Shown here: one piece after another, positions 21,236-38,200 of the stretch
Layout: every line of letters starts with the position of its first letter
Position numbering within the stretch: position 1 is the first letter of the stretch
Assembly (NCBI GenBank): GCA_049514515.1
Contig: JBEKUZ010000008.1
Span: forward strand, 9,303 to 73,302
Length of the DNA stretch: 64,000 nt
From: Thermodesulfobacteriota bacterium
GTDB taxonomy: Bacteria > Desulfobacterota > BSN033 > UBA1163
Reading direction: 5' to 3'
Made by a program: the position numbers and the translations under genes
The notes under the pieces: generated by a model
Databases searched by the model: none
Seen by the model: only the letters and a program-made list of their open reading frames with translations
What the model was told of the DNA's origin: nothing

Positions 21236-21976
21236 TCAAACAATTCCGCCGTCCACGACAATCGTTTGGCCGGTGATATAGTCTGATTGGTCTGAGGCAA
21301 GAAAGAGGACGGCCCGGGCGACCTCTTCCGGCTTCCCAATCCTTCCCAGGCTGGATGATTTAATGATGGCTCCCACCTTCTCTTTGGGCATCTTGGACAC
21401 CACTTCCGATTCGATCAGGCCCGGAGCCACCGCATTCACATGGATGTTGAAAGAGCCTAACTCTCGGGCCAGGGATTTTGTGAAGCTGATCATCCCTCCC
21501 TTGGTTGCCGCATAATTGGCCTGGCCCGGAGTGCCCATGATTCCGCTGATGGAAGAGATATTGATGATCTTTCCCTTCCTCTGAGGAATCATCTTTCGAA
21601 TCACAATTCTGCAACAATAAAAAAGGCTGGTCAGATTCGCTCTAAGGAGAGAGTTCCAATCCTCATCGCTCATCAACATGAGGAAGTTATCCCTGACGAG
21701 GCCCACGTTGTTTACCAAAATATCGATCTTCCCGTATTGGGCGAAGGTCTCTTCCACCATTTCTTTTACCTGATCGGGCTGCGTGACATCCGCTTTAAAC
21801 AGGCCGACGCTGAGCCCTCCGGATTTGGATTCCTTCTTCAGATTTTCCGCGGCCTCCACGTCCTTTGAAAAATTGGCGACCACCTTTGCCCCATTCTCGG
21901 CAAAGAGAAGGGAGATCGCTTTTCCGATTCCCTTCGTTCCCCCGGTGACTATGGCTACTTGATCCTTCAATAGCAT
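21236..21976 (-). CDS. fabG: 3-oxoacyl-ACP reductase (SDR)
   Basis: TGGTKGIG cofactor motif, NNVG, S...YAATKGG catalytic triad region. Confidence 0.85.
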
Positions 21977-22001
21977 CTTCCAACTCCCTTCTCTCGCGGA
22001 G

Positions 22002-22040
22002 CCCCCTCACCCTGTCCCTCTCCCCGCAGGGGAGAGGGGA
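22002..22040. repeat. PU palindromic repeat, copy 2 (right arm truncated)
   Basis: ccccctcaccctgtccctctcccc gca ggggagagggga. Confidence 0.8.
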
Positions 22041-22044
22041 AAAT

Positions 22045-22121
22045 GTAGCGTCGGCATTTATTGCCGACGAAAATCTTTTGAATCGAGAATGCTAACCGCC
22101 CCCAGTAAATGGGGGCGCTAC
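22045..22121. repeat. REP doublet (GTAGCG-hairpin ... hairpin-CGCTAC), inverted orientation, 28-nt spacer
   Basis: gtagcgtcggcatttattgccgac ... cgcccccagtaaatgggggcgctac. This is the reverse complement of the units at 26520, 27094 and 32364. Confidence 0.85.
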
Positions 22122-22245
22122 AACCCCCCTTACATAATCCATGTGCCTAAAGTGTGGAATGAACTAAAGTTGGAAAAGATTTCAAATTCATTGAATTTCA
22201 CTTTAGGCACTTTAAGCACTTGTAACTTTAGTCACTCTTTTTACG

Positions 22246-23646
22246 TCACTTTAGTTCACTCAAGGGTCTTATTCTTGGTTTCTTCATTCTTCCCACCAGC
22301 TCCCATAGGGGGCCGCGAATTCGAAATCTCCGTATTTGCTCCATTAGATTTTTCGTGATGTTGATCTCCAGTCCGGGGACGATCCACCGCTGCCTTGCAA
22401 GGGCTTTTTCCTGAACGATCTCGCTCAGCCTCCCTCCCAATTTTGGCGAAATGTAGAAATGAGGGTAGATGAGGTTAGCGTCCTGAGAGATCACCCCCTG
22501 AGAACGGGAAATTCGCTCCATTTCGGTTCCCGGATAGATTCGGATGCCCAACATCGCAATGACCGCAGTGGGATCGACTTGATCCATCAAATGGAAAGAC
22601 TCCTCGATCGTCTCTTCATCTTCCCCTGGCCCTCCGAACAGGAGATAGTGGCACTGATTCACCATCAATTTGGAACAGAGGTTTGAGGCTTGGATGATGT
22701 CCTCTCGAGTGAAAGACTTTCTGTAACTCTCAAGCATCCGCGGAGATCCTGAATCCGTCCCAAACTCGATTCCATCACACCCAGCCTCTTTCATACTTTG
22801 CAAAAGTGTCTCATTCAGAAAGCTCGGGTTGACAAAAGCACTCCATTTGACATCGACCTTTCTTCCAACTATCTCACGACATAAAGCTTCTGCATAAAAG
22901 GGTGGATAGTTAAAGATATCGTCAACAAAATAGAGGTAGTCCACGCCCTCTCCCACGAGGTGTTGAATTTCCCCTACCACATCCTCCGTCTTCCTCAGCC
23001 TGACCCTTTTCCCTTCTAACAAAGGGTAAGTGCAGTAGATACAGGAGAAGGGGCAGCCTCGCTTCGTCTGAATATTTCCCATCCCTCCCTCTTCCAAATA
23101 ACGATGGGTTTCGAAAAGACTCCGATCAGGGCTTTGGATGGGAGAGACTCGAGCTCCTTCTGTCAAAGGAGGGAAAGGCTTCTCTTTAATAAGAAGATGG
23201 GGGGATGGAGAAATGGGAACACCCTTCTCGAGATGCTTCACCAATTCCACGAACACTTTTTCCCCCTCTCCTACAACCCCAACATCGACGTCGAAATGCT
23301 GAAGAAGCTCTTTGGGTGCCAAAGAATATCCTGAGCCTCCGATGACTAAATGTGAGGAGGTGAATTGACGACATATTCCAATGACCTCCTCTACCTCTTT
23401 GAGATAAGAGATGGAGGTTGGGTAAGTGAGATTATCGAGATTTCTAAGGGAGATGCCGATCATGTCGGGTTGAAAGCGCTGAAGGGTGTTCTTGAGATCA
23501 ACCGGTACCTCTTGAGAAAAGCAGAGGTCGATGACTTCAATCGGATGGCCCTCTTCTCTTAATGCCTCGGCGATGTAAGCCAATCCCAGAGGGAAGACAG
23601 GAAAAGGCATCTTCTCACGATTGACGGAGATGAGGAGAATTTTCAT
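22246..23646 (-). CDS. B12-binding-domain radical SAM protein (class B), paralog 4
   Basis: N-terminal Rossmann-like B12 domain (MKILLISVN...GLAYIA). CX3CX2C in TKRGCPFSCIYCTY. Confidence 0.85.
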   Translation of the reverse strand: MKILLISVNREKMPFPVFPLGLAYIAEALREEGHPIEVIDLCFSQEVPVDLKNTLQRFQPDMIGISLRNLDNLTYPTSISYLKEVEEVIGICRQFTSSHLVIGGSGYSLAPKELLQHFDVDVGVVGEGEKVFVELVKHLEKGVPISPSPHLLIKEKPFPPLTEGARVSPIQSPDRSLFETHRYLEEGGMGNIQTKRGCPFSCIYCTYPLLEGKRVRLRKTEDVVGEIQHLVGEGVDYLYFVDDIFNYPPFYAEALCREIVGRKVDVKWSAFVNPSFLNETLLQSMKEAGCDGIEFGTDSGSPRMLESYRKSFTREDIIQASNLCSKLMVNQCHYLLFGGPGEDEETIEESFHLMDQVDPTAVIAMLGIRIYPGTEMERISRSQGVISQDANLIYPHFYISPKLGGRLSEIVQEKALARQRWIVPGLEINITKNLMEQIRRFRIRGPLWELVGRMKKPRIRPLSELK

Positions 23647-24991
23647 AAGGAAGTTCTTTATCTTTGATCCTTCGAATCACCTCCATCTGGGCGCCCCGTA
23701 GGACAAAGTTTGACATCAGGAAGTAAAAAAAGTGATGCTTGGGGCCCCAGAGCAGGCGCTTCAATATGGATCGAGGGGCACAGATATATTTCTGTGCCCA
23801 GAGGTATCCGTCTTGGAGTTCCTGGACAGTCATTTTTCTCGGCTCGAAGACCACATGGCTCATGTCATAATGGGACCAATTGCGGTCGAAGATCCTCCCC
23901 TCCTCCTCCAATCGCTTCTCAAGAGGCGTCCCCGGAAAGGGAGTGAGAATGGAGAAAGTGGGGAGTTCAATATTATTTTTCTGGACGAATTCAACCGTTC
24001 TTCTAAAAATGGTGGGATCGTCTCCATCGAATCCGAAGATGAAAGAACCGTGTATCCCGATTTGGTGGTGTTGGATCGTATTGACCCAATTTGATAATTC
24101 TCCAGCATTGACAAATCGTTTCGAGACGCTGTCCAGATTCTCCTGGAGAAGGGATTCGAAGCCGATGAAGAGGGAGACACAGCCGCTCTCCTGAGCCTTT
24201 TTGAGAAGCTCCTCATTCATGGCAATCTTGATGGTGGTAAACGCCATCCATTTGACCCTGTGGCGTTTAAAGATCTCAAAGAGGCCACGGGCATAGTTTT
24301 CATTAGCGGTCACGTTGTCATCGGCTAAAAAGAGGTATTCCCCTTTTTTCTCGATGATGAGGGACAGTTCCCGATCTATTTCTTCAAGCGGGCGGAGCCG
24401 ATAACGCTTCCCATTGATGATCGGAATAGAGCAGAATTCACACCGGTTCGGACAACCTCGCGTGGTCTCGATGACCTTGAAGAAGGGTCGATACCCTTCC
24501 GCCAGAAGGTCCCTCCTCGGAAGAGGCATTCCTTTTAGATCCGACCACTCCCGATTCTTATAAAACGGCTTGAGTTCCCCTGCCTCGAAGTCTCGCAGGA
24601 CTTTTTCGAGTACCCCTTCCGCCTCTCCGATGAAGACCGAGTCAGCATGCTCTTTTGCCTCCTCGGGCAAAAGGCTGGGGTGGACTCCTCCCAAAATCAC
24701 CTTGACTCCCCTCTGACGAAACCCATCCGCAATTGCATAGGCTCTATTTATCACACAGGTCAGACCGGTGATCCCTACTAAATCGACTTCCGAATTGAAA
24801 TCGACTTCTTCGACCACCTCGTTGATGATCTTGACCTCATAGGTTTTGGGAAAGAGAGAGGCGAGAAGGGTAAGGCCTAATATGGGGAAAGGGTACAACG
24901 TGTCATTGGAAAATTTAATTCCTTTCTCCCTGGGAAAGATGAGAAGAACCTTCTTCAAATGCGGATTGCGGAATGCGGATTGCGGAGTCAT
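23615..24991 (-). CDS. B12-binding-domain radical SAM protein, paralog 3
   Basis: TTRGCPNRCEFCSI. The first about 11 codons (TPQSAFRNPH) are repeat-encoded. A TTG at 24958 (LKKVLLIFP) is a plausible true start. Confidence 0.85.
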   Translation of the reverse strand: MTPQSAFRNPHLKKVLLIFPREKGIKFSNDTLYPFPILGLTLLASLFPKTYEVKIINEVVEEVDFNSEVDLVGITGLTCVINRAYAIADGFRQRGVKVILGGVHPSLLPEEAKEHADSVFIGEAEGVLEKVLRDFEAGELKPFYKNREWSDLKGMPLPRRDLLAEGYRPFFKVIETTRGCPNRCEFCSIPIINGKRYRLRPLEEIDRELSLIIEKKGEYLFLADDNVTANENYARGLFEIFKRHRVKWMAFTTIKIAMNEELLKKAQESGCVSLFIGFESLLQENLDSVSKRFVNAGELSNWVNTIQHHQIGIHGSFIFGFDGDDPTIFRRTVEFVQKNNIELPTFSILTPFPGTPLEKRLEEEGRIFDRNWSHYDMSHVVFEPRKMTVQELQDGYLWAQKYICAPRSILKRLLWGPKHHFFYFLMSNFVLRGAQMEVIRRIKDKELPYENSPHLRQS

Positions 24992-25089
24992 TTTTCTTCT
25001 GTTCTATATATTCCTGCTGCCCACTGCCTTCTGCTTGCTGCCTCCTATTTCCTGGTTTCTAATCCGAACTCTGGACTCATCACTCCGAG

Positions 25090-26511
25090 CTAGGATTCAA
25101 AGTTCGGCTGTTTCCACGGCCTTTTCGTCGCATTCTCCCAAACGTATCGGAGGATGAGCCGATAGGCCATTCGTTTGAAAGGATTCGGGTTGAAGAAGGC
25201 TCCCAGAAGGATCCTCGGTTGGGTGTAATATTTTTTCAGGTAGACTTGTTGAAGGTGATGGAGCTCCTCAGGAGACAAAAATTTTGTATCCATCACGGGA
25301 TGCATGAAATCATAATTACCCAGATCCCTCTCTCGAATCCTTCCCAACCGCTCCGCCTCTTCAAAATATTTTGTCCCTGGAAGGGGGGTAGTCAGGGTAA
25401 GTACCAGGAAGTCGCTCTGAGACTTGACGAATTGGAAGACCTCCTTGATCGACTCTCGGGAGTCATTCCAGTCTCCGAACATGATGTTGGCCATGACCAT
25501 GATCTCATTTTTTCTGAGAATATCGATGGCCTTCTGGGCCATCTCTCTGGATTGATGTTTCTCATATCGGTCGAGCACATCGGGCTGGATGCTTTCGATT
25601 CCCAGCATCACCTCATACAGTCCGAGCCGTTTCATCTCGGGGATGAGATCCTCATCTCGAATAATGTCCTTGGTCCGGGATTGAAACCAAAAATGGATGC
25701 GCAGGCCCGACTTCCCCAACTCGTCAAGGAACTCTTCCACCCGCCTCCGACTCCAGTTGAAGGTATTCTCGTTGAAGACGAAAAGCGTCTTGCCGTATTG
25801 ACGGTGCAGATGCGAAATCTCCTCTACGATTTTCTTCCCGCTCCGTCCCCTCCAGACCGCTTCCCAGAACCTGGACTCCGAGCAATAAGCGCATCGATCT
25901 CCGCAGCCGCGGCTCGTAGAAATCCCGAAGGCCCTTCTCCCCATCCCGTGCCAGTAGTAAGCGTCTTTCTCCATATCGATGAGGTGGTAGGCCGGGAGAG
26001 GAAGAGAGTCCAAATTTGGAATGGGAGGGTGTCTTTCGTTCAGAACCACCCTCCCATTCTCGCGATAGGCGATACTCTTCATCGCTCTTCCCTTCCCACC
26101 TCCGGACAGATCCTTGAGAAGCTGGGAAAAGGCGATTTCCCCTTCACCTAAGACGACGCAGTCCAGTTCCTTTAACTCCTGAAGGATTGTTTCGGCCATC
26201 AGCGTGAAATGGCTTCCTCCTGCTACGATGGTGGCGTGGGGGGAGAGTTTTCGACAGAGATGAACGGTCTGAATGGCCTCTGGCGAGAGACAGGTAGCGG
26301 AACAAGTGACGCCGATGACATCGGCTTTGGATGTGGAAACGGCAGTCTCAATATCTCTCCAGGGAGCCGGAAGGGTCGTGGCGTCAACGATTTGAACTTG
26401 ATTCCCTTCTCTTTCGAGGTAGGCACCTAATTGGAGAAGACCAAAAGAAGGGGTCCACATCCGAAGGCCCGGAAAGAGTTTATGCGGCGGATCGATCAGA
26501 AGAACTTTCAT
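25090..26511 (-). CDS. B12-binding-domain radical SAM protein, paralog 2
   Basis: TSRGCGDRCAYCSE. Start set at the internal ATG at 26511 (MKVLLIDPP), because the track start at 26532 (MGALQEN) lies in the REP unit. Confidence 0.85.
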   Translation of the reverse strand: MKVLLIDPPHKLFPGLRMWTPSFGLLQLGAYLEREGNQVQIVDATTLPAPWRDIETAVSTSKADVIGVTCSATCLSPEAIQTVHLCRKLSPHATIVAGGSHFTLMAETILQELKELDCVVLGEGEIAFSQLLKDLSGGGKGRAMKSIAYRENGRVVLNERHPPIPNLDSLPLPAYHLIDMEKDAYYWHGMGRRAFGISTSRGCGDRCAYCSESRFWEAVWRGRSGKKIVEEISHLHRQYGKTLFVFNENTFNWSRRRVEEFLDELGKSGLRIHFWFQSRTKDIIRDEDLIPEMKRLGLYEVMLGIESIQPDVLDRYEKHQSREMAQKAIDILRKNEIMVMANIMFGDWNDSRESIKEVFQFVKSQSDFLVLTLTTPLPGTKYFEEAERLGRIRERDLGNYDFMHPVMDTKFLSPEELHHLQQVYLKKYYTQPRILLGAFFNPNPFKRMAYRLILRYVWENATKRPWKQPNFES

Positions 26512-26519
26512 ATTTTCTT

Positions 26520-26577
26520 GTAGCGCCCCCATTTACTGGGGGCGATTGTTCTCGTCGGCAATGAGTGCTGACGCTAC
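26520..26577. repeat. REP doublet abutting the RAYT stop codon
   Basis: gtagcgcccccatttactgggggcg - 9 nt - gtcggcaatgagtgctgacgctac. Confidence 0.85.
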
Positions 26578-26578
26578 A

Positions 26579-27085
26579 TCACATGTATTTCTTTATCTCA
26601 GCATCGAACGATTCACTATATGGATAGTCATCAGCATTCTCTACAATGCCCTTTCTAACCGGGTTATTTCGAATATACTCGATGACCCTTTTCAAATTCT
26701 CCTCTGTCCTAATGACATGGTCAAAGGCAGATCTTTGCCATATCTTTCTTAAATTATCCTTGTCCTTGAAAACCTTGGCTGTTCTCCCTTTGAAAATATT
26801 AAGAAATTTAGGGAGTGCAACGGTCGATTCGCCGGGACATACGATTACATGTAGATGGTCAGGCATTAGACAATAGCAAAGAATTCTAAATCTAAGGTCT
26901 TTTGCAGTCTTTAGCAGTTCATTGACTACAATTGTTGCATTAACCTCTGAACCAACAATATTTTCCTTATCTTCTGTACAGATAGTCACATGGATCGGCC
27001 GGTCTTTTGAATAATCATAATTCGACAACCTGTTAGAACGACTTTCCCCCCATGTCTTGTATTGATCCTTAGCTTTTGTCTCCAT
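26579..27085 (-). mobile_element. REP-associated tyrosine transposase (RAYT, IS200/IS605 Y1-like)
   Basis: CYCLMPDHLHVIV (HUH region) and a ...NPVRKGIV tail. Flanked on both sides by directly oriented REP doublets. Start set at the ATG at 27085, because the track start at 27106 (MRALQQK) lies in the REP. Confidence 0.8.
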
Positions 27086-27093
27086 CTTTTGTT

Positions 27094-27151
27094 GTAGCGC
27101 CCTCATTTATTGAGGGCGAACGTTTTCGTCGGCAGTAAATGCCGACGCTAC
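27094..27151. repeat. REP doublet upstream of RAYT
   Basis: gtagcgccctcatttattgagggcg - 9 nt - gtcggcagtaaatgccgacgctac. Confidence 0.85.
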
Positions 27152-27155
27152 ACAT

Positions 27156-27578
27156 TTACACCTCCAAATATTTCTGCATAGCCTCGATTCGTTCGAGCAC
27201 CTCTCGAGGAACCCGGTAGAGAAGATTCCCTTTAAGGTCGGTGAGGACATGCGTGGTGAAGCCCGTTGCAAGAACCTTTCTGCTTTCTTGATCAAGGACC
27301 CGATAATGAAAGATCAGCTTAGCTACCTCTGTCCTCTCCATCGTTGTCTGGATGATGAGAGGGGCGCCAAAGGTAGCTGGGAGCTTAAACTCGCAGTTTA
27401 GTTCGACGACCGGTGCCAGATAATTTGTGTCCTTAAGCTGAAGCGGCCCCATCTGGAATCGCTGGGTTAGGTCATTTCGACCCGCCTCAAACCACCCCAC
27501 ATAGTGGCCATGCCAGACCACTCCATAAGAATCCACTTCATAGAAACGAACTTGGAGGGGCGTCTCGTGGTATTTCAT
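27156..27578 (-). CDS. Hotdog-fold (4HBT/YbgC-like) acyl thioesterase
   Basis: MKYHETPLQVRFYEVDSYGVVWHGHY. Start at the internal ATG at 27578. The track N-terminal extension is PU-repeat translation. Confidence 0.75.
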   Translation of the reverse strand: MKYHETPLQVRFYEVDSYGVVWHGHYVGWFEAGRNDLTQRFQMGPLQLKDTNYLAPVVELNCEFKLPATFGAPLIIQTTMERTEVAKLIFHYRVLDQESRKVLATGFTTHVLTDLKGNLLYRVPREVLERIEAMQKYLEV

Positions 27579-27579
27579 T

Positions 27580-28542
27580 CTAATCCTTTTTCCCCCTCTC
27601 CCTCCCCTCGCCCCCCTGGGGAGAGGGATAGGGTGAGGGGCACCCGGCCGAAAAAGCCCCTGCCTCCCGATCAATCCATCGCATCAATTTCGTAAGAGCT
27701 GCCTCATGTCCTACTTCGACGAATTGCGTAAACCCTTCCCCCAGCAAGTTCTCGACACATCGGACCCAATAGACAGGCCGTGCGATCTCTTGGGAGAGAA
27801 AATCTTTGATCTCCTCTCTCCTCAAAGGCTTGATCGTCCAATGATTGAGGACGGGAACGTTGGGAGCTTGAATCTTGATATCTTGAAGGATGGTCATAAT
27901 CTCTTGCCTGAGAGAATAAAGCGAAGAGGAATGAAGAGCCGTGTTGAAGGCAAGACGGGTGGCTGAAACCGCCTTCCTGGAAAGGGCAAGGGAAATCGCG
28001 CTGTCCACTCCCGCCTCCTCCCCCGAGAGGACGAAATGCATCGAGCCATTATAATTAGCGATGGAGAGTTGAAACCCGTTGAGGTCTTGACAGATCTTTT
28101 GGACTTCCTCCAAGGGGAGGCCGATGATGCTGGCCATGCCTCCCCGGTGAGTCACCCCTTCTTTCTTGAGGAGCCGGCCGATGGCCTCCGTGATAAAGAG
28201 CCCTTCTTCGAAGCGGATGGCTTCCGACGCGGCCAGGGCTGCGTAGATTCCCATGCTGTGTTCGGCAAGGATATCCGGATTCCATCCCGCAGCTCGAAGA
28301 CGGTAGTAGTGGACCATCGAGAGGAGGTAAGTCGCGACCTGAAGCTTGAGGCTGAAATCTTCCTCTTCGTCCTTATCCCCGAATGAGAAGTTGAGGAGAT
28401 CGAATTTCGTCTGGCTGGAAGCCCTTCTTAATAGTTCTCTAAAATGGGGATCTCCTCTCAGGGGATGATGATCTTCAAGGATCGGCTTCTCATGAAGTTG
28501 GCCGGGAAAACAGAAAGCCGTTTTCCCTGTTGATCCCATCAT
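27580..28542 (-). CDS. FabD-like acyl-carrier-protein acyltransferase, divergent
   Basis: FPGQ..., nucleophile elbow EHSMG (canonical GHSLG), ALHSS (canonical AFHS). The last about 20 aa (PSPYPSPQGGEGRERGKKD) are encoded by the PU repeat. Confidence 0.7.
   Translation of the reverse strand: MMGSTGKTAFCFPGQLHEKPILEDHHPLRGDPHFRELLRRASSQTKFDLLNFSFGDKDEEEDFSLKLQVATYLLSMVHYYRLRAAGWNPDILAEHSMGIYAALAASEAIRFEEGLFITEAIGRLLKKEGVTHRGGMASIIGLPLEEVQKICQDLNGFQLSIANYNGSMHFVLSGEEAGVDSAISLALSRKAVSATRLAFNTALHSSSLYSLRQEIMTILQDIKIQAPNVPVLNHWTIKPLRREEIKDFLSQEIARPVYWVRCVENLLGEGFTQFVEVGHEAALTKLMRWIDREAGAFSAGCPSPYPSPQGGEGRERGKKD
27592..27641. repeat. PU palindromic repeat, copy 3 (inside the 3' end of the acyltransferase ORF)
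   Basis: ccccctctccctcccctcgcccccctggggagagggatagggtgaggggc. Confidence 0.85.
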
Positions 28543-28811
28543 GCGGTCCCCTGATGTTCCAAAACATATTGGGCCATGGTTCTCACGGACTGAAAGACTT
28601 TTTTCCCTACCTCCGCATCGGGAATGACGACCCCAAACTCCTTCTCCAGGCCCAGGACGAGCTCAAGGGCGTCAATCGAGTCCAGCCCGAGGCCCTCACC
28701 GAAGAGAGGAGCATCGGTCTCGATCATCTCCGGGGTCATATCCTCAAGTTTTAGTCTCTGGATGATGAGCTGTTTAAGGGTTTCGATCAGGTGATCATTA
28801 GGTTCAACCAT
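28539..28811 (-). CDS. Acyl carrier protein
   Basis: 90 aa, LGLDSIDALELV phosphopantetheine site, 4-nt overlap with the acyltransferase start. Confidence 0.85.
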   Translation of the reverse strand: MVEPNDHLIETLKQLIIQRLKLEDMTPEMIETDAPLFGEGLGLDSIDALELVLGLEKEFGVVIPDAEVGKKVFQSVRTMAQYVLEHQGTA

Positions 28812-31158: not shown

Positions 31159-31187
31159 TGAAAAACTTCTCCCAGAACTACACGACG

Positions 31188-31360: not shown

Positions 31361-31380
31361 ATGCTTTTCTTCGCTGTGCT

Positions 31381-32352
31381 CTATGCGCCATGCGCTATGC
31401 TATCCTTTTTTTGGCGATAGCGCTCGCAGAGGTCGCCCCAGCAGGCCACCACTTGGTGGTCCACCAGAAGCTGGATCACTTCACACTGATTTCCGCATTC
31501 TTCACAATCAAACCCCCGTGTGGAACACGACTTTTGAGGAAGATCAAATCCTCTAAATTGAGTTTTGGAGGGTTTGGCCTTCTTCACCAATTTTGCAGCC
31601 CCGATGGCACCCATGACGTCAAAATGTTCCGGGATGACGAGAGAGACCTCCAACTCTCTTTCGAGCGCTCTTTGGATGCCTCGATTCGCCGCGACACCAC
31701 CCTGGAAGACGATGGGAGAAAGGATTTCTTTCCCACGGCAGACGTTATTCAAATAGTTCTTCACCAGGGAGTCACAGAGGCCAGCCACAATATCCTCAAC
31801 AGAATGTCCGATCTGTTGCTTATGAATCATATCTGTTTCGGCAAAGACCGTGCATCGGCCTGCGATCCGGACAGGGTGGTCGGCCTTGAGCGCGAGGTCT
31901 CCGAAAGCCTCGATGGAGATCCCGAGCCTCGCTGCCTGCTGATCCAGGAAAGATCCCGTGCCTGCCGCGCAGACGGTATTCATGGCAAAGTCGACGACGA
32001 CGCCGTTCCTCAGGACGATGACCTTGGAATCCTGGCCGCCGATCTCGATGATGGTCTTGGCCTCCGGCAGGAAATCAATTACGGAAACGGCATGGGCCGT
32101 GATCTCATTTTTGACAAGATCGGCGCCTACCAGATAAGCAGCCAAATGTCTGGCACTGCCGGTGGTCGCCACTCCGTCAATAGAAACGATTTTCCTAAGC
32201 TGAGTCAGGATTTCCTCCATCCCCTGCTGGATGGCTTCGATGGGCCGCCCGCTATTGCGAATATAGGACTTGGCCAAAACCCGGTCGTCTCCGCTAAGCA
32301 CCACTAACTTGGTGGTAATGGACCCGACATCAATGCCTAAATAGTTTGCCAT
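31381..32352 (-). CDS. BcrAD/BadFG/HgdC-type ATPase (activase) with Cys-rich C-terminal tail
   Basis: MANYLGIDVGSITTK (ASKHA phosphate-1), IEIGGQDSK, CAAGTGSF. Tail CSTRGFDCEECGNQCE. Start at the ATG at 32352, because the track start (MRALQ) lies in the REP. Confidence 0.8.
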   Translation of the reverse strand: MANYLGIDVGSITTKLVVLSGDDRVLAKSYIRNSGRPIEAIQQGMEEILTQLRKIVSIDGVATTGSARHLAAYLVGADLVKNEITAHAVSVIDFLPEAKTIIEIGGQDSKVIVLRNGVVVDFAMNTVCAAGTGSFLDQQAARLGISIEAFGDLALKADHPVRIAGRCTVFAETDMIHKQQIGHSVEDIVAGLCDSLVKNYLNNVCRGKEILSPIVFQGGVAANRGIQRALERELEVSLVIPEHFDVMGAIGAAKLVKKAKPSKTQFRGFDLPQKSCSTRGFDCEECGNQCEVIQLLVDHQVVACWGDLCERYRQKKDSIAHGA

Positions 32353-32363
32353 AATAGGAATTT

Positions 32364-32418
32364 GTAGCGCCCTCATTTATTGAGGGCGGAGTCGGTCGGC
32401 AATGAATGCCGACGCTAC
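32364..32418. repeat. REP doublet
   Basis: gtagcgccctcatttattgagggcg - 6 nt - gtcggcaatgaatgccgacgctac. Confidence 0.85.
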
Positions 32419-32433
32419 TCTATTTGACCTTTG

Positions 32434-33471
32434 TCATTTGTAATTGATTTGAACTTGATTCACCTTCGGTTCATCACTCCGTGCGACATTTGAACTTTGT
32501 AATTTCTTCTGCTCTTCCACGACATCCCGGAACGCCTCCAGCCGGGTGGTCAATCCTTCCCTTCCGGTATGTTCGTCAAGGGAGAGAATGAGCAGGGGGA
32601 CGGAGGCTCTTCCCTGGACTTTCAACCTTCTTTTGATAAATTCTTGAAGAAGGGCATCGATACCGCACTTAAAGGAGGTAAGGAAGACCACTCCATCCAC
32701 CCCATCGGATAGAAAGTGAAACAGAGACCCTACAATTTCTCTCCCGGACGACCAGTAGATCTCTTTGGAGAGGTCAGAGACTTCTCGATCGATCTCCTTT
32801 TCGGAAAGAAGATCAGAGGTAACGATCTCCATTTGCAAACTTTTCGCCAGGGCAAGGAGGTCTTTGTTGATATCGGTGTCGAAGAGATTGTAAGGATGAC
32901 CGATGAAAGCGATACGGAACGGAGCTTTTTTTCTCACGGGCGACATTGGAACATCCATTTCGAAAAGCTGGGCCGTGGGAAGCCGGTTGATTCGGTCCAC
33001 CCAATCCTTCTGAAATTTGGAAAAAGACTTCTCTGCCTCTCGAAAGGCCCTCTTGCTCTCTTGCCTTGAGGCGCCCAGCTTTTCACCGATCCTTAGAAAA
33101 GTCTGAAGAAGGGACATTCCTCCTTTTCGAAGATCGATGGTTTCGTCAAGGATGGAAACATTTCCTTCCGTAGCAAGCCGCACGATGTCGGGGGCTCCCC
33201 GAAACTTAGGACACATGATGTAAGTTCGATGAATACTGACTAACCGAGGGATAAAAAGATGATCCACCTTGTCTTTCAATTGAACTGCATGCGTGACCAG
33301 AAGTTTCATCGGAAGACAACTGTCTTCGAAATAGATGATCTTCTCCTTCTGTCTTGCCCCGTCGGAAATCTTCACCCTCCAGCCCAGCCTTTCAAAAAAA
33401 GGGCGCCAGAGAGGAAGGTAGCGATAAAACATCAGGGCTCTGGGAATGCCTATGCGGCCTTTCTCTTCCAT
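32434..33471 (-). CDS. Acyl-CoA dehydratase activase-related protein (DUF2229/HgdB-like), subunit B
   Basis: MEEKGRIGIPRALMFYRYLPLWRPFFERLGW..., FKCGIDA, LSLDEHTGREGLTTRLEAF. Start at the internal ATG at 33471, giving a 22-nt overlap with the upstream gene. Confidence 0.7.
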   Translation of the reverse strand: MEEKGRIGIPRALMFYRYLPLWRPFFERLGWRVKISDGARQKEKIIYFEDSCLPMKLLVTHAVQLKDKVDHLFIPRLVSIHRTYIMCPKFRGAPDIVRLATEGNVSILDETIDLRKGGMSLLQTFLRIGEKLGASRQESKRAFREAEKSFSKFQKDWVDRINRLPTAQLFEMDVPMSPVRKKAPFRIAFIGHPYNLFDTDINKDLLALAKSLQMEIVTSDLLSEKEIDREVSDLSKEIYWSSGREIVGSLFHFLSDGVDGVVFLTSFKCGIDALLQEFIKRRLKVQGRASVPLLILSLDEHTGREGLTTRLEAFRDVVEEQKKLQSSNVARSDEPKVNQVQINYK

Positions 33472-34550
33472 TCCAACATCTCCACAAAGGCCTCGAGAAG
33501 TGTCTGAATGCGGCCTTCGATCTCTTGCTCGTCCAGGATGAGCGTCAGGATAGGAATGTCTCGGTCCCTCCCGACCTTTGTCAGAATTCCAGAGGCGGTG
33601 GTCTCCGGCATGCAGGCAAAGGGCATGAGATGGACGATCCCGTCGTATCCTTCTTGGGCTCTCAGGATGGCCTCGCCGATGGAGATATTGCATTCTGCGC
33701 CGACATCGTAACCCAGGTAAGCCTTTGATGCTTCGAAGAACCGAACGCGTTCCGAAGCCCGATCCGCCTTATTTTTGCGAAGACTCCTCAGAATATGAGT
33801 GGAGAACCAGGAGGTGCGCGTTACTTCGACGCCCAGTTCCCCCAGCTTTTGCTCCACTCCTCGATTGATATGGGGGTCCATGACCGTATAAAGCTCGCCC
33901 ACAATGGCGACCCGAAACGGGATGCGGGACCGGTCTTGCTCCATTTCCTGAAGAAGGGTCTTTCCATTTTGAATGGCTTCTTCGACGGTCTTTTGAGTTT
34001 TCGCCTCATCTACCAGGGAGAGGGCCTTCTTCAGTCGCTTTTGAGTCTCTCCTTTCTTGAGCTCCATCGGTCTGACCTTCATGGCCAATCGTTCTAAGGC
34101 TTCACAGGCCATCATCTTCTTCCATCCCATCCAGAGCCCGTAAGGGAAGAAGAGAACGTTTCTGGCGCTCAATTCTTTTCTCAGATCCTTCGTCTCCTCG
34201 TGATTCTTCCAGAGGGCCTTCCAGCTAAATCGAGGTGGAATCGTCAGCCATCGATAATGAAGGCCCATATCTTCGAGGATCACTTTTTGGACAAGGTCAT
34301 AGAGTCCGAGACGGCAAGGAGGCCCACTGCCGACCATCACAATGGTATCCGCCCCCATCTGAAGGGCTTCGATAAAATTTCCCAGGATGATTTTGAAAGG
34401 AAGACAGATACACTCATTCGAGTGGAGGACACCCAGGGTCAGGGTCTTGCGACTGGTTTCAGGAGGAAGGATGTAAGGAATGCCGGCGGTCTCTGCGATC
34501 GCCTTGCAGAAGATGTGCATCGAGCCCAGACGGGGAAAGGTCACCTTCAT
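33450..34550 (-). CDS. Acyl-CoA dehydratase activase-related protein (DUF2229/HgdB-like), subunit A
   Basis: LTLGVLHSNECICLPFKIILGNFIEALQMGADTIVMVGSGPPCRLGLY and FACMPE...ILTLILDEQE blocks, typical of the CoA-enzyme activase C-terminal region. Confidence 0.7.
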   Translation of the reverse strand: MKVTFPRLGSMHIFCKAIAETAGIPYILPPETSRKTLTLGVLHSNECICLPFKIILGNFIEALQMGADTIVMVGSGPPCRLGLYDLVQKVILEDMGLHYRWLTIPPRFSWKALWKNHEETKDLRKELSARNVLFFPYGLWMGWKKMMACEALERLAMKVRPMELKKGETQKRLKKALSLVDEAKTQKTVEEAIQNGKTLLQEMEQDRSRIPFRVAIVGELYTVMDPHINRGVEQKLGELGVEVTRTSWFSTHILRSLRKNKADRASERVRFFEASKAYLGYDVGAECNISIGEAILRAQEGYDGIVHLMPFACMPETTASGILTKVGRDRDIPILTLILDEQEIEGRIQTLLEAFVEMLEWKRKAA

Positions 34551-35956
34551 CCATGTCTACCCACTACCTTTTTCCCTGTCGAAAGGGGCTCGGGGGTTGG
34601 ACCCTCCATTTTTTCTTTCCAGGCGGCTTCCGCAATCTCTCCGTAAGCTTTCGCGTAGCTGTCGATGGCCTGTGCAAAATCCGTAAAAAGCTGCTCTGCC
34701 CCTTCATGGGTAAAGTATTTTGCGTACTGAAGGGCAAACTCCCTCCCTTTCTGAGGGTGATCGATCAGGGGACAGGCTCGAAACAAGTTCTCCGAGAAAG
34801 GCTGGTGGGATCGCATTTCCTTGAAGAGAGGAGAATTGAGAGCTTCCATGAGAGACTTCTCTTTGATATTGTCAGAAGCAAAATGGCAAAAGATACAGGG
34901 CTCGACATCCCCCTGGGCATTCACATGAAAGTACTTCCTCCCCGCGGCAATGCATCCCTGAGTGAGACAGCCATCGTTCCAGAAATCAACGAAAAGCATC
35001 GGTTTGGTGGCCCGAAAATAGGCCAGCCGTTCCCTTGCCCGACACCTCTGCTCAGGAGTCACCATGAGGGAGAGATCAGGGTTTCTTCCGATGGGGACGT
35101 AATGGAAGTTCCAGAGAAGGATGCATCCTCGCTCCACCAGAAAATCGACAAAGGCATCGCTCGTCAGGACATCGTGATTTTTGGAAGTCTGCGTCGTGGA
35201 GACAGCAAAAAAGATCCCAGCTTCTTTGAGTCGATCCATCACCCGCAGAGCTCGATCGAACTGCCCCTTGCCTCTTCTTCCATCGGTTTCTTCTCTGAGC
35301 CCTTCGAGGCTGATTGCGGGAGAGACATTCCCCAGAGCCACGAATCGATCGATCATCTTCTCGTCGATCAAGGTGGCATTGGTATAGACCTGAAACATCA
35401 TATCATCATGCTTTTCAAAGAGGTCGAAAAGATCCTGCCTCAAGAAGGGTTCTCCGCCCGTCATCATGACCAGATGGATACCCATCTCTTTACATTCCCC
35501 CATGAGCCGATCCAGCACCTCATAAGGAAGATCCTCCTGGGAATAGACCCCTGAATAACAACCATAGCAATTCAGGTTGCACCGCATCGTCGGGCTGATC
35601 AACATGGCGTCCGGCGGATAAAATCCCCTTTCTGCCTCAAAGGCCTTTCTTCGATTGGTGCCCACGAGGAGTTGGTTAACGATGAAGTTGGAGATGAGTT
35701 TTCTCCGATGATGGGGATGCGTCTCGCTGAGAACCCTCTTCGCAATCGACAGACCGGGATGATTGGTTTGGAACAGGGTGCGAATCCATCGAATCTTCTC
35801 TCGATAGGATTCCTTTTGGGGAATTTTCTCCGCAAGATAGGTCAGACGGATCAAATTCTCTGTGGAGGCGCCTGCCAGGAGAGAAAGAGCGCTCGCGGTG
35901 AATTTTTCTATGGAATATCGCTTCGCTCGCTGATAAAAATCCATCTTCCTCCTCAC
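34547..35956 (-). CDS. Radical SAM protein with SPASM/twitch-like C-terminal Cys cluster
   Basis: SPTMRCNLNCYGCY (CX3CX2C), GGEPFL, C-terminal CIAAGRKYFHVNAQGDVEPCIFC. 4-nt overlaps at both ends. Confidence 0.8.
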   Translation of the reverse strand: MRRKMDFYQRAKRYSIEKFTASALSLLAGASTENLIRLTYLAEKIPQKESYREKIRWIRTLFQTNHPGLSIAKRVLSETHPHHRRKLISNFIVNQLLVGTNRRKAFEAERGFYPPDAMLISPTMRCNLNCYGCYSGVYSQEDLPYEVLDRLMGECKEMGIHLVMMTGGEPFLRQDLFDLFEKHDDMMFQVYTNATLIDEKMIDRFVALGNVSPAISLEGLREETDGRRGKGQFDRALRVMDRLKEAGIFFAVSTTQTSKNHDVLTSDAFVDFLVERGCILLWNFHYVPIGRNPDLSLMVTPEQRCRARERLAYFRATKPMLFVDFWNDGCLTQGCIAAGRKYFHVNAQGDVEPCIFCHFASDNIKEKSLMEALNSPLFKEMRSHQPFSENLFRACPLIDHPQKGREFALQYAKYFTHEGAEQLFTDFAQAIDSYAKAYGEIAEAAWKEKMEGPTPEPLSTGKKVVGRHG

Positions 35957-36642
35957 CAGAACAGACCCCGAAGAAAAAGCATACAGACGATCCAGGTATC
36001 GGCCACTGGCCTGAAATGGCTGGAGCCGGTTCCGTCAATTCTGGGCGTATTGATAGGAACAGATAACACACTGAACCCCTTTTTGCAAGCTTTAATAAGG
36101 AGTTCCAATTCCGTCTCGAATCGGGATGTCGAGAGCTCGACCGCCCTTAACACCTCCGTCCGAATGAGTCGAAACCCGGATTGGCTGTCCAAAATGTCCG
36201 AGTGGCAGAGCCGTGAAACAGCCTTTACCCCCAAACGATTCCAAAAGCGGCGGAGGAAGGTCATTTTGTCAAACTCCGTTGCCCGGGAGGCAATGAGGAT
36301 ATCGGGTTTGACGCTTTGAAAAATCCTGAGAAGGGACGGGATTTCTGCGGGATCATGTTGACCGTCTGCATCCAGAGTGATCACCACCCGATAGTCTCTT
36401 TGGAGGATATATTGGAATCCTGTCCGAAGGGCAGCCCCCTTTCCAAGGTTAAGGGGGTGCACCAGGAGTTGGACTCTATTTTCCAAAGCCAACCGCTTCG
36501 TCTCATCCGAAGATCCGTCATCGACGACAACGATATCGCTTTTGAGAGGTTCGATTTTTTTTAGAACCGAACCAAGAGTGTCCTGAGCATTATAAGCAGG
36601 GATGAGGATACAGATTTTATCCGACCGTTGCATACAATCCAT
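35953..36642 (-). CDS. Family 2 glycosyltransferase
   Basis: ICILIPAYNAQDTL...VVVDDGSSDET...LDADGQHDP. Confidence 0.8.
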   Translation of the reverse strand: MDCMQRSDKICILIPAYNAQDTLGSVLKKIEPLKSDIVVVDDGSSDETKRLALENRVQLLVHPLNLGKGAALRTGFQYILQRDYRVVITLDADGQHDPAEIPSLLRIFQSVKPDILIASRATEFDKMTFLRRFWNRLGVKAVSRLCHSDILDSQSGFRLIRTEVLRAVELSTSRFETELELLIKACKKGFSVLSVPINTPRIDGTGSSHFRPVADTWIVCMLFLRGLFW

Positions 36643-36679
36643 TGCTTACGATTTAAGATAACTGTGATATCTTGACCCA

Positions 36680-36875
36680 CAAAGCACCAAATTCCAAGTG
36701 CTAAGCTTCAAATAAATCTCCCCGCCTGCCGGCAGGCAGGAATAACCAAGAGTTCGAATTCAAAACCCCTCACCCTCCCCTCTCCCCGCCGGGGAGAGGG
36801 ATAGGGTGAGGGGCGTCATTGGGTTTTGCTGATTGGAATTTATTCGTAATTTGGGATTTCGAAATTAGAATTTTG
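36680..36875. repeat. Composite palindromic element (AT-rich arms, cctgccggcagg palindrome, PU copy 6 at 36766-36813)
   Basis: caccaaattccaag...aaataaatc on the left is the inverted match of gattggaatttattcgtaatttgggatttcgaaatt on the right. Confidence 0.7.
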
Positions 36876-36938
36876 ACTCCCAAGCTCTTTAGATCTGTAT
36901 CTCCCTTTGGCGTTTCAAGAGTTGATATGTCAGGTATT

Positions 36939-38096
36939 TCATCGTCTCTCCAAAAATCGTTTCATTTCAGCATCGTACAGGAAGGTGAAAAAGGTTGCAA
37001 CCGATCCCAACAACGGAAGGGGGTCATCTTTTGAAAACACATCATAGCAAGTATTGGGATCAAAGAAGTTGAAGAAGGAAGGATCAAGGCCAAAACGTTG
37101 CGGATGGTTCAAAAAATGAAGGATGTCCCCCAGGAGAAGCCAGCGAAAACGTTTCCCCACGGCGTAGTGAAGAACGGGGTCGAAATGTTCCTTCCTGGCC
37201 ATCTTCAAAATGAGAAAGGGAAAATCAACTCCAGATACAATGGCCAGCTGTAATGAGCCCCAAAAGCGGGGGTTCACCTCCATCAATTTCGGAATCCCAT
37301 CTCTTGGATCGACTTTGAATTCGACCATGCCCACGCCAACCCAATTTAACGACTTAAGGAGGGAGAGGCCCAACTCCATGATCTGAGGATGTTCTATCCC
37401 TTCCGCCAACGTGCTGGGACCTCCTTGAATCGGATACATCCTCAACTTCTTATGAACGAAGGCAGCCTTGACGTTCGAAGCCTCATCAAACAGGGCGGAC
37501 AGCCCAAAGGTCCCTCCTCCGTCGGGAATCCATTCCTGAATCAACGGAAAAGGATACCGTCCATGGACGTTTTGATAAGACGAGCTGAGGTCCTCCCCCT
37601 TCTTTACATAGACTATGCCAAAGGAGCCGGAACTGATCCGCGGTTTAATCACTGCTGGAATTGGAATAGAGGAGGATGAAGAAGTAGGAAGGTCATAGAA
37701 TGTTTTGGGCGTTGGGATCCCGTGGGCTTCTGCAAACCGTATAAGATTTCCCTTGTCCCGCACGAATTCAATCTTTTTCAAATCGGGAATGAGGAGGTAA
37801 GCATATTTGGAGATTTCAGAATGATATTTCGCCAGCGAAAGCAGCGTTCCCTCTTCCATGGGGAAGAGGCAGTCGTACTGTTTTTTTTTAATCTCTCTCA
37901 GAATAAATTCAATAAATTGATTTGGGGATTGCTGTGGTGAAGGATAGACCAGACGCCTGGTGCAATACCTCGAAAAGAAGGAGGTATTCAGGCATGTCCG
38001 CTCTCCGACAGTGACAGGGACCCCTTTCCGACCAAGGGATCGAACCACAGCCAATGATTTTCTAAAGTGCCCATCCGTGACCAGAACACGCGCCAT
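36939..38096 (-). CDS. ATP-grasp domain protein (carboxylate-amine/thiol ligase type)
   Basis: MARVLVTDGHFRKSLAVVRSLGRKG..., AVIKPRISSGS, EWIPDGG, MVEFKVDPRDGIPKLMEVNPRFWGS. Start at the ATG at 38096. The track TTG start at 38150 reads through a repeat. Confidence 0.75.
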   Translation of the reverse strand: MARVLVTDGHFRKSLAVVRSLGRKGVPVTVGERTCLNTSFFSRYCTRRLVYPSPQQSPNQFIEFILREIKKKQYDCLFPMEEGTLLSLAKYHSEISKYAYLLIPDLKKIEFVRDKGNLIRFAEAHGIPTPKTFYDLPTSSSSSIPIPAVIKPRISSGSFGIVYVKKGEDLSSSYQNVHGRYPFPLIQEWIPDGGGTFGLSALFDEASNVKAAFVHKKLRMYPIQGGPSTLAEGIEHPQIMELGLSLLKSLNWVGVGMVEFKVDPRDGIPKLMEVNPRFWGSLQLAIVSGVDFPFLILKMARKEHFDPVLHYAVGKRFRWLLLGDILHFLNHPQRFGLDPSFFNFFDPNTCYDVFSKDDPLPLLGSVATFFTFLYDAEMKRFLERR

Positions 38097-38105
38097 GAAC
38101 TTATA

Positions 38106-38200
38106 TTGCGGATTTCGAAATGCGGATTGCGGATGAACATCTAATACCAAATCTGTCGTTTGAATTTAAACTCCGCAATCGCCACTCCGCAATCCGAAAT
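38106..38200. repeat. Inverted pair of cgcaatccgca-type repeats
   Basis: ttgcggatttcgaaatgcggattgcgga (38106-38133) is the inverted match of ctccgcaatcgccactccgcaatccgaaat (38171-38200). Related copies lie at 24959-24987 and 63136-63156. Confidence 0.75.

Follow-up and report, generated by a model that had tools for sequence, protein, structure and literature searches.

Which product can be expected from a run of genes that brings together a dedicated acyl carrier protein (ACP), a FabD-like acyltransferase (AT) and five radical S-adenosylmethionine (rSAM) enzymes, with no ketosynthase (KS) in sight? This question is raised by positions 21236-38150 of a 64-kb stretch of contig JBEKUZ010000008.1 from a Thermodesulfobacteriota bacterium; the whole stretch is called the window in the following. 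The 16 consecutive minus-strand genes found there by open reading frame (ORF) listing, Pfam and NCBIfam form a real, intact and conserved array. We regard it as an enlarged, Syntrophia-specific and uncharacterised variant of a known but unsolved lipid cluster family of Desulfobacterota, the TIGR04072 "ladderane-type", aryl polyene (APE)-like one. We consider it reasonably probable that the array is the tailoring-and-anchoring part of a type II fatty acid- or polyketide-like lipid pathway of this family, which has carrier, release and anchoring proteins in common with the APE clusters and would proceed by the steps proposed further below.

The array had been described before from its letters alone (the sequence-only reading). 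Each gene named at that time was recovered on the minus strand by the ORF listing, Pfam and NCBIfam run on the array proteins, and the overlaps and gaps given then are exact to the nucleotide: 4-nt overlaps join the glycosyltransferase (GT2) to the SPASM gene, the SPASM gene to DUF2229a and the ACP to the AT, and gaps of 1 nt separate rSAM A from the LpxL-like gene and the AT from the thioesterase (TE). Further overlaps are those of the two DUF2229 genes (22 nt) and of rSAM C and D (32 nt). The number of genes has to be corrected from seventeen to 16, which is also the number in the earlier list itself and in its line of proposed checks. In order of transcription, the genes are:

36939-38096, minus strand: ATP-grasp protein (Pfam ATP-grasp_3 and ATPgrasp_Ter), an adjoining gene of doubtful membership
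35953-36642, minus strand: GT2 glycosyltransferase, 229 aa, soluble, with DAD motif (Pfam PF00535, E 1e-24), homologue of the N-terminal half of ApeJ
34547-35956, minus strand: SPASM-type rSAM protein, 469 aa, with CNLNCYGC motif (Pfam Radical_SAM and SPASM)
33450-34550, minus strand: DUF2229/HGD-D subunit a (Pfam DUF2229 9e-13, HGD-D 4e-6)
32434-33471, minus strand: DUF2229 subunit b, 345 aa (Pfam DUF2229 1e-39)
31381-32376, minus strand: BcrAD/HgdC-type activating ATPase, 331 aa (TIGR00241, 201.7 bits against a cut-off of 125.4)
29788-31158, minus strand: cobalamin-binding (B12-) rSAM A, 456 aa, accessory (Pfam; best NCBIfam matches BchE and HpnJ, far under the cut-offs)
28875-29786, minus strand: LpxL/PatA-family acyltransferase (Pfam Lip_A_acyltrans 9e-36), homologue of the C-terminal half of ApeJ
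28539-28811, minus strand: dedicated ACP of the ApeE type with LGLDS motif (NF006617, 76.4 bits against a cut-off of 70)
27580-28542, minus strand: FabD/DisD-like AT (PDB DisD, 9e-30)
27156-27578, minus strand: hotdog TE, ApeK-like, 140 aa (Pfam 4HBT_2)
26579-27106, minus strand: REP-associated tyrosine transposase (RAYT; NF047646, 105.6 bits against a cut-off of 80); the whole insert with its repetitive extragenic palindromes (REPs) spans 26553-27151
25090-26511, minus strand: B12-rSAM B (Pfam; BchE-like, 235 bits against a cut-off of 481)
23615-24991, minus strand: B12-rSAM C (Pfam)
22246-23646, minus strand: B12-rSAM D, the TIGR04072 protein (385.8 bits against a cut-off of 360)
21236-21976, minus strand: FabG, 3-oxoacyl-ACP reductase (NF009466, 261.8 against 222 bits; TIGR01830, 295.9 against 297.75)

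The CxxxCxxC motif is kept in five of five rSAM proteins, and likewise kept are the serine of the ACP (DS motif), the N-terminal Asp of the TE, the DAD motif of GT2 and the sequence HLGNWE of the LpxL-like protein at the catalytic position of PatA and LpxM. Orthologues with 80-97% identity to the array proteins occur in many metagenome-assembled genomes (MAGs), which argues that these genes are under selection, and the recurrence of the same order in dozens of independent contigs puts the arrangement beyond chance. Peat-bog metagenome contigs (JGI, ENA) encode the looked-up window proteins exactly, together with the same neighbouring genes; the closest genome is that of an uncultured "delta proteobacterium" MAG (94% protein identity), and the named relatives are Syntrophaceae or Thermodesulfobacteriota. 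The long GTG start of rSAM A is wrong, and the protein with this start has no exact match.

All window proteins were mapped onto two sets of 80 loci each, one taken from genomes with the TIGR04072 protein as seed, the other from metagenomes with relatives of DUF2229 subunit b as seeds. The co-occurrence across genomes, which the sequence-only reading had proposed to check, proved extensive: the same array is found in dozens of Syntrophaceae and Syntrophorhabdus MAGs and a shorter form of it in Geobacterales. In the first, Syntrophia-type version, the order (polysaccharide deacetylase)-GT2-SPASM-DUF2229a-DUF2229b-BcrAD-(rSAM A)-LpxL-ACP-AT-TE-(RAYT)-rSAM B-rSAM C-TIGR04072-FabG-(KS and further genes), with facultative members in brackets, returns in dozens of contigs; rSAM A is present in 21 of 36 loci. 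The Geobacterales (Geobacter-type) version, known from 33 loci including Oryzomonas japonica and Geobacter argillaceus, reads deacetylase-GT2-SPASM-(rSAM A)-LpxL-ACP-rSAM C-like (one or two copies)-AT-TE-TIGR04072-FabG-KS-CLF-small ORF-LolA-like-LolB-like-MMPL, CLF standing for chain-length factor, and none of the 33 loci contains BcrAD or DUF2229 genes. GT2 heads the cluster in both groups. Homologues of rSAM C with 34-41% identity occur in 30 of the 33 Geobacter-type loci, of which some have two, as well as in the compact operons of the L149 type described below, while rSAM B goes with the Syntrophia-type cluster and is found in a single Geobacter-type locus. The searchable literature on TIGR04072, on ladderanes or aryl polyenes in Geobacter and Syntrophus and on clusters combining rSAM enzymes, ACP and 2-hydroxyacyl-CoA dehydratase yielded no characterised orthologue, in agreement with the earlier statement that the array cannot be assigned to any characterised cluster.

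The family assignment follows from rSAM D, which matches over its full length (model positions 2-450) and above the trusted cut-off of 360 bits the NCBIfam equivalog TIGR04072, "lipid biosynthesis B12-binding/radical SAM protein" (rSAM_ladder_B12). The resemblance to candidate ladderane clusters, noticed earlier in concept, thus has a concrete counterpart in one of the B12-rSAM proteins. Type II fatty acid synthase (FAS-II)-type neighbours are FabG and the ACP in the window, and KS, a dead KS and FabZ adjoin in orthologous loci, not in the window. Rattray et al. (2009, PMC2649909) described clusters resembling FAS-II with rSAM genes in Kuenenia stuttgartiensis and comparable ones in Desulfotalea, Geobacter and Pelobacter; our link to the Kuenenia clusters is made through the NCBIfam model and the Geobacterales synteny, not through an alignment with Kuenenia sequences. 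Ladderane biosynthesis proper finds no footing here: Pfam revealed neither an amine-oxidase/phytoene-dehydrogenase-like gene nor FabZ in the window, and the host, a member of the peat Syntrophaceae, is not expected to make ladderanes.

In most related loci having both ends in sequence, rSAM D is paired with FabG, at times as a stand-alone pair. The two genes form an isolated unit in other Thermodesulfobacteriota (loci L049-L056; for example, L052 10001-12393), which suggests that the TIGR04072-FabG pair may be the functional core of the family. Pfam places this pair in L052 next to an AMP-binding enzyme and gidB/parAB, an unrelated context. As a hypothesis only, the TIGR04072 enzyme may methylate at or near the beta-keto stage.

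How does such a pathway relate to the lack of a KS? The earlier statement that KS, dehydratase and enoyl reductase are all missing holds for the whole 64 kb, both by Pfam (precomputed on identical contigs for positions 1-56000, own scan for 56-64 kb) and by tblastn of the relatives' KS, CLF, FabZ, LolA, LolB and MMPL proteins against the window, which gave nothing better than E = 0.35. As a trait of the pathway, the lack of a KS fails. Wherever a Geobacterales locus is long enough, FabG is directly followed by a KS and a dead KS, and a FabF-type KS comes after FabG in 10 of the 25 Syntrophia-type loci whose downstream sequence measures 3 kb or more. The exact order of the window is found again on a 367-kb contig of a relative, where TatA-TatC-RadC-ATP-grasp-GT2 and the following genes down to FabG are succeeded by MatE and DUF488 on the opposite strand, and on the far side of these two, at 4.4 kb from FabG, a KS is found, followed by IDH and a 2-oxoacid:ferredoxin oxidoreductase; in the window, DUF488 is followed by a defence-type islet and no KS. 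Because a KS is located only 4.4 kb away in a relative with the same order, we ascribe its absence to the local gene order of this lineage, not to the pathway family. Of the top 120 KS homologues, none was located on the 2.2-Mb contig of the closest genome (L010). The KS of the relatives keeps the Cys-His-His triad and its partner has lost three of three residues; in L044, two more genes come after the KS series, one for a small membrane protein and one for a dehydratase that exceeds the cut-off for FabZ.

The nature of the acyl group that enters the pathway can be approached through the AT, whose best structural relatives are the trans-AT protein DisD and FabD proteins. When 69 orthologues (35 Syntrophia-type, 34 Geobacter-type) were aligned with FabD of E. 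coli K-12, Gln11, His91, Ser92 and His201 turned out to be invariant, and Arg117, the malonyl-binding residue of FabD, to be replaced in all 69, by Ile in each of the 35 Syntrophia-type proteins and by Ile, Val, Ala, Phe or Gly in the 34 Geobacter-type ones. Gly90 is changed to Glu in all but three orthologues and Gln250 to Glu in all but one. The protein of the array thus has the catalytic dyad Ser92-His201 of a malonyl-CoA:ACP transacylase without its Arg117, and it scores 151.9 bits with TIGR00128, for which the cut-off is 260.9. As regards acyltransferase specificity, loss of the malonyl-binding Arg points to a monocarboxylic acyl substrate. Since Arg117 is lost, we read this AT as a putative starter or acyl loader with a monocarboxylic substrate rather than as a malonyl transacylase.

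The loss of this Arg in all orthologues would also suit the explanation favoured earlier, in which a ready-made fatty acyl chain is transferred from CoA or AcpP onto the ACP by the AT, modified there by the rSAM enzymes and the DUF2229 system and moved to a glycolipid, no dedicated chain builders being involved. It is also consistent with the 15 of 25 Syntrophia-type loci lacking a KS in the 3.8-9 kb available after FabG, and with the compact L149-type operons, which combine SPASM, BcrAD, DUF2229, LpxL and B12-rSAM genes and have neither ACP nor KS. However, FabG is almost always attached to the cluster, and a beta-keto reductase needs a condensation product; together with the KS and its dead partner in Geobacterales, the KS of 10 Syntrophia-type loci and the one at 4.4 kb in the relative with identical order, this renders tailoring independent of a KS unlikely to our mind.

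A pathway that builds, releases and anchors its chain has its nearest model in the aryl polyenes, and the window proteins were compared by blastp with the ape cluster of E. coli CFT073 (apeA-R; gene table from PMC8253772). The ACP is 47% identical to ApeE (E 4e-23), against 42% over 57 aa to AcpP, and the TE shows 33% identity to ApeK, which has the same length (E 3e-21). GT2 corresponds to the N-terminal half of ApeJ (28% over 229 aa, E 6e-18), the LpxL-like protein to its C-terminal half (24% over 206 aa, E 5e-15) and FabG to ApeQ (36%, E 6e-50). An ApeE-type ACP, an ApeK-type TE, both activities of the ApeJ glycosyltransferase/acyltransferase and an ApeQ-type ketoreductase are thus all represented. 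Aryl starter and polyene machinery are not, as no window protein matches ApeH, ApeO/R/C or ApeI/P and AMP-binding Pfam domains are missing from the array. The export trio of LolA-like, LolB-like and MMPL proteins, which follows KS-CLF in the Geobacterales clusters, is absent from the window (tblastn).

The LpxL-like acyltransferase also invites a different idea, a remodelling of lipid A or lipopolysaccharide, in which a special chain built on a dedicated ACP would be added by the LpxL homologue as a secondary acyl chain of lipid A. AcpXL and LpxXL offer the precedent for such a transfer of an acyl chain from a dedicated ACP to lipid A. The intact HX4E motif of the enzyme, its proximity to the ACP, the Gram-negative host and a PagL lipid A deacylase gene in the window are in line with this possibility, and the APE study, too, counts lipid A among the conceivable anchors (PMC8253772). 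Yet PatA and the C-terminal half of ApeJ match the acyltransferase better than LpxL or LpxM do (PDB matches: PatA 6e-14, LpxM 7e-11), it stays under every NCBIfam cut-off, and neither GT2 nor the TE has a role in the AcpXL system, so that we judge lipid A remodelling to be rather improbable.

With only 23-30% mutual identity, the four B12-rSAM proteins of the array are ancient paralogues, not recent duplicates. Among solved structures, TsrM (6WTE, tryptophan C2-methylase; E 8e-40) is the closest to rSAM D, and the next NCBIfam family is BzaD (233 bits against a cut-off of 450). The other three, rSAM A-C, display class-level similarity only (AprD4, TokK, CysS, OxsB, BchE, HpnJ, HpnR), all far under the family cut-offs. 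For the SPASM protein, SkfB is the best PDB relative (1.7e-11), and the NirJ and AhbD families of NCBIfam are near, with scores far under their cut-offs; the protein carries an N-terminal extension of about 115 aa of unassigned fold, and its gene lies beside GT2 in all cluster versions. Judged by the descriptions of the matches, without Tes or Mss sequences, none of the five rSAM proteins has a PDB match described as tetraether synthase at E <= 0.001 or a Tes-type NCBIfam name. No cobalamin riboswitch was detected with Rfam upstream of the B12 enzymes; the window holds only an M-box and a TPP riboswitch.

SPASM proteins and B12-rSAM methylases are common in clusters for ribosomally synthesised and post-translationally modified peptides (RiPPs), and with SkfB as best structural relative of the SPASM protein, one could imagine that a small precursor peptide is modified here. 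The N-terminal extension gave no Pfam match at E <= 0.1, including no RiPP recognition element (RRE) or PqqD domain; the intergenic ORFs are short, lie in REP-containing spacers and include no convincing precursor; and the constant partners of the rSAM genes are ACP, AT, TE, FabG, KS and LpxL. The sequence-only reading had itself named a precursor gene with RRE domains as the finding that would speak for a peptide cluster, and with neither present the RiPP explanation was rejected; we give it next to no credence.

Absent from all Geobacterales loci is the trio of the BcrAD-type ATPase and the two DUF2229 subunits. The ATPase exceeds the cut-off of TIGR00241 ("acyl-CoA dehydratase activase") and has the invariant cysteines Cys136, Cys175 and Cys201. 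Its C-terminal tail of about 65 aa (31381-31590) contains four more cysteines (Cys291, 294, 298 and 317), invariant in 20 homologues of 46-63% identity, for which a weak zinc-ribbon match is the only one found (E 0.0085); electrons could enter through an additional metal site in this tail. In both DUF2229 subunits, exactly three cysteines are invariant, at positions matching between the two, Cys49, Cys79 and Cys313 in subunit a (30 homologues) and Cys52, Cys87 and Cys269 in subunit b. An AlphaFold model of subunit b from a diverse alignment reached a pLDDT of 92 (a shallow alignment of sequences 74-94% identical had given 44), and Foldseek matched it with probability 1.00 and TM values of 0.41-0.52 to 2-hydroxyisocaproyl-CoA dehydratase, the double-cubane cluster protein (DCCP) and the class I benzoyl-CoA reductases (BCRs) MbdONPQ and BzdNO (entries 3o3o, 7yyl, 6eno, 9gai and 8s02). 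In sequence-profile comparisons, the similarity of the subunits to 2-hydroxyacyl-CoA dehydratases (HADs) and DCCP is marginal (E 0.003-0.012), and the PDB sequence search returned no match for subunit b and only marginal DCCP matches for subunit a (E 0.05-0.09). The TIGR00241 activator with its invariant cysteines, the predicted HAD/DCCP fold and the three invariant cysteines per subunit place the trio in the HgdAB/DCCP/BCR superfamily.

The trio is an accessory to the core cluster and occurs only in its Syntrophia-type version; it also stands alone in other loci. In L090-L095, a homologue of subunit b (48% identity) directly precedes KS-CLF-Sm-FabZ, and a compact operon of the order SPASM-BcrAD-DUF2229a-b-b'-a'-LpxL-(START/SRPBCC-like)-B12-rSAM was met in L142, L147, L149, L154 and L159. 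These contexts in distant lineages indicate that the link of the trio to the SPASM rSAM protein, the LpxL-type acyltransferase and a B12-rSAM protein is old and recurrent. The compact operon of L149 (6351-15827, from a sediment metagenome) contains no ACP, KS or FabG, and the version of L147 is followed by an MMPL gene; this type of operon is possibly a minimal lipid-modifying module. The reaction of the trio could, as a guess, be the reduction of a conjugated or aromatic thioester or the dehydration of a hydroxyacyl intermediate.

That the trio might instead act like PlsA/PlsR or Ger and convert an ester-linked chain to an ether had been put forward in the sequence-only reading, and the three shared Pfam families (BcrAD_BadFG, DUF2229 and HGD-D) as well as the adjoining lipid acyltransferase are in its favour. 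The Ger and PlsA homologues of confirmed ether-lipid producers share a core in which two ATPase (BcrAD) domains and a DUF2229 domain behind them are fused (BBD; PMC13159169). Orthology to them was rejected: the array encodes one ATPase of 331 aa and two separate subunits with no BBD fusion, and, among the 2049 DUF2229 relatives found at 50% clustering in 1.84 billion cluster representatives, the best 150 measure 128-765 aa, none exceeding 800 aa, and are either single proteins of some 330 aa or fusions of two subunits with some 730 aa. Given also that the trio is missing from 33 of 33 Geobacterales loci and that a subunit b homologue lies beside KS-CLF-FabZ elsewhere, the ester-to-ether idea does not hold up well, and an ether-lipid module appears very unlikely.

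Returning to a TIGR04072-type lipid pathway with APE-like carrier, release and anchoring proteins, its chemistry, which we infer from homology and synteny with the observed gene content and intact motifs as a basis, might run as follows. The Arg-less AT would load a monocarboxylic acyl (starter) group from CoA onto the ApeE-like ACP. A FabF-type KS, in some relatives with its dead partner and a FabZ-type dehydratase, would then extend the chain, the genes being outside the window and adjacent in relatives, and FabG would reduce the beta-keto groups. The four deeply diverged B12-rSAM enzymes and the SPASM rSAM enzyme would modify the chain; methylation seems likeliest, since the TIGR04072 member is nearest to the methylases TsrM and BzaD, and formation of C-C bonds is possible. 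As a Syntrophia-specific add-on, the BcrAD ATPase would drive electrons into the Fe-S pair formed by DUF2229a and b for a difficult reduction or dehydration. Finally, the ApeK-like TE, the LpxL-type acyltransferase and GT2, the latter two equivalent to ApeJ, would move the product to a glycolipid anchor in the envelope. From the sequence-only reading, this retains the ACP-bound chain, its radical-based tailoring, transfer and glycosylation, and the uncharacterised nature of the pathway; the emphasis on a missing KS and the conversion of ester to ether are given up.

Several observations weigh against this proposal. Apart from the majority of Syntrophia-type loci with no KS in the available sequence, the KS, CLF, dehydratase and export genes are all missing from the window by tblastn, as are equivalents of ApeH, ApeD and ApeL/M/N. 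The KS near the cluster reaches the cut-off of the FabF subfamily, and FabG is nearer to E. coli FabG (43% identity) than to ApeQ (36%), so that KS and FabG could be shared with housekeeping fatty acid synthesis or could be housekeeping enzymes themselves. For the five rSAM enzymes and the DUF2229 system, the substrates assigned are guesses. The TIGR04072 cluster family has no member with a known product, and the role of the B12-rSAM enzymes is unproven even in anammox bacteria, where heterologous expression failed and genetics are lacking (PMC10139942).

At both ends and in one internal position, the array can be delimited more closely. The RAYT gene, already recognised earlier as inserted, is a passenger and mobile insert and not part of the pathway, being flanked by REPs and present in only five of 31 related loci. 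Four REP copies with a GTAGCG head and the 8-bp palindrome CGTCGGCA...TGCCGACG were found, at 22045-22073 (spacer between FabG and rSAM D), at 26553-26577 and 27127-27151 (flanking RAYT) and at 32394-32418 (spacer between DUF2229b and BcrAD); outside the spacers between the cluster genes, the 64 kb contain no copy. Because the annotated ATGs of rSAM B (26532) and RAYT (27106) lie within REP-derived sequence, the true starts are probably 26511 (rSAM B, MKVLLID) and 27085 (RAYT).

The ATP-grasp gene, taken earlier as the first gene of the array, is probably a neighbour: it is separated from GT2 by a 297-bp gap with a terminator-like hairpin (36742-36719), travels with TatC-RadC in Syntrophia, is found at the other end of the cluster and in opposite orientation in L034, and has no homologue of its protein in any Geobacter-type locus. 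A polysaccharide deacetylase gene (DUF3473, XrtA-type) lies between ATP-grasp and GT2 in six of nine Syntrophia-type loci and before GT2 in 23 of 33 Geobacter-type loci; no trace of a deacetylase remnant was detected in the corresponding spacer of the window (36643-36938). At the opposite end, the array is met by:

19839-21230, plus strand: MATE transporter (Pfam MatE), convergent on FabG

This gene occupies the same position in L010, L013, L018 and L171 and is placed between FabG and KS in L043 and L171; as a conserved neighbour in this sub-lineage, its product may be an exporter. Farther on, in the defence-type islet (14260-18164, plus strand), an AbiU2-like gene is accompanied by a type II N6/N4 methyltransferase that is truncated (181 aa, matching residues 6-147 of a model 330 aa long), a DrmC-like nuclease of the PLD family, an HNH nuclease and HEPN_AbiU2; the relatives carry KS or other genes at this place. 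The gene directly downstream of the M-box (magnesium) riboswitch (3193-3371, minus strand, 117 bits) codes for an OprB-family porin (1347-3068) and not for a Mg2+ transporter, and the PagL gene (3512-4195) lies just upstream of the riboswitch. The TPP riboswitch (56140-56255, minus strand) upstream of thiD/thiC genes is ordinary.

What could such an array mean for its carriers? Very tentatively, and with doubt prevailing, one may picture syntrophic Desulfobacterota of peat and sediment making an undescribed class of envelope lipids, whose acyl or polyketide chain would have a CoA ester other than malonyl-CoA as its starter, would be methylated several times or cross-linked by the four distinct B12-rSAM enzymes and the SPASM protein and would be processed reductively by an ATP-driven enzyme related to BCR and DCCP, with the TIGR04072 enzyme performing an unknown key step shared with the anammox ladderane cluster. 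If this were true, the benzoyl-CoA reductase/DCCP superfamily would have a new role, in lipid biosynthesis; an ATP-driven Fe-S system of this class inside a lipid cluster is a combination that we did not find in the searchable literature. The carriers are abundant in peat and anoxic sediments, and their lipids could be unrecognised biomarkers. With the conserved APE-like clusters of culturable Geobacterales such as Oryzomonas japonica and Geobacter argillaceus, a tractable route to the function of the TIGR04072 enzyme would be at hand. The cluster family as such is already known to genome-mining tools, antiSMASH flagging "ladderane" clusters in Desulfobacterota and other non-anammox phyla with no function assigned, and the present analysis does not reveal the product of the array either.

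Compared with known systems, the array shares with the Kuenenia and other "ladderane-type" clusters the TIGR04072 rSAM gene beside FabG and a dedicated ACP, in relatives also the FabF-type KS, its dead partner and the FabZ-type dehydratase, and glycosyltransferase and polysaccharide deacetylase genes occur in the same clusters. The KS with its dead partner resembles both the amxFabF2/amxFabFmut pair of anammox bacteria and the KS/CLF pairs of type II systems. Unlike the "ladderane-type" clusters, the window adds the BcrAD/DUF2229 system, the SPASM rSAM protein and three further B12-rSAM proteins and has no local KS or dehydratase, and unlike the anammox ladderane clusters proper, it lacks a phytoene-dehydrogenase-like gene as well as the FabZ and ACP specific to anammox bacteria. 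The nearest relatives of the TIGR04072 protein, TsrM and BzaD, are cobalamin-dependent rSAM C-methylases acting on sp2 carbons, although rSAM D remains far under the BzaD cut-off and belongs to an equivalog family of its own.

With HAD, DCCP and class I BCRs, the trio has in common a separate activating ATPase with cluster cysteines, two paralogous catalytic subunits and the predicted fold, whereas its subunits are shorter (about 350 aa), its ATPase bears the extra four-Cys tail, and its context is that of ACP and lipids instead of CoA-ester fermentation or aromatic degradation. With PlsA, PlsR and Ger, it shares the three Pfam families and, plausibly, an anaerobic lipid-related context, but it is split into one ATPase and two subunits and accessory to an ACP-based cluster.

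The APE cluster contributes ApeE, ApeK, both halves of ApeJ and an ApeQ-like protein to the list of common features, to which the Geobacterales clusters add KS, CLF and LolA/LolB/MMPL. The aryl-activating ApeH, the SAM methyltransferase ApeB, ApeD and ApeG are without counterpart in the array; conversely, the rSAM enzymes, the Arg-less FabD-like AT and the BcrAD/DUF2229 system are without counterpart in APE clusters. ApeJ itself (558 aa; L170 41213-42889) is a fusion of a GT2 and an LpxL-type domain, whereas the array encodes these as two genes with six others between them, and all relatives keep them separate, several kb apart. By analogy, the family would follow the logic of the aryl polyenes, in which a chain grown on an ACP of its own is released, linked to a lipid anchor of the envelope and exported to the outer membrane. 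The aryl-polyene cluster, which the sequence-only reading had missed, is the closest characterised architecture.

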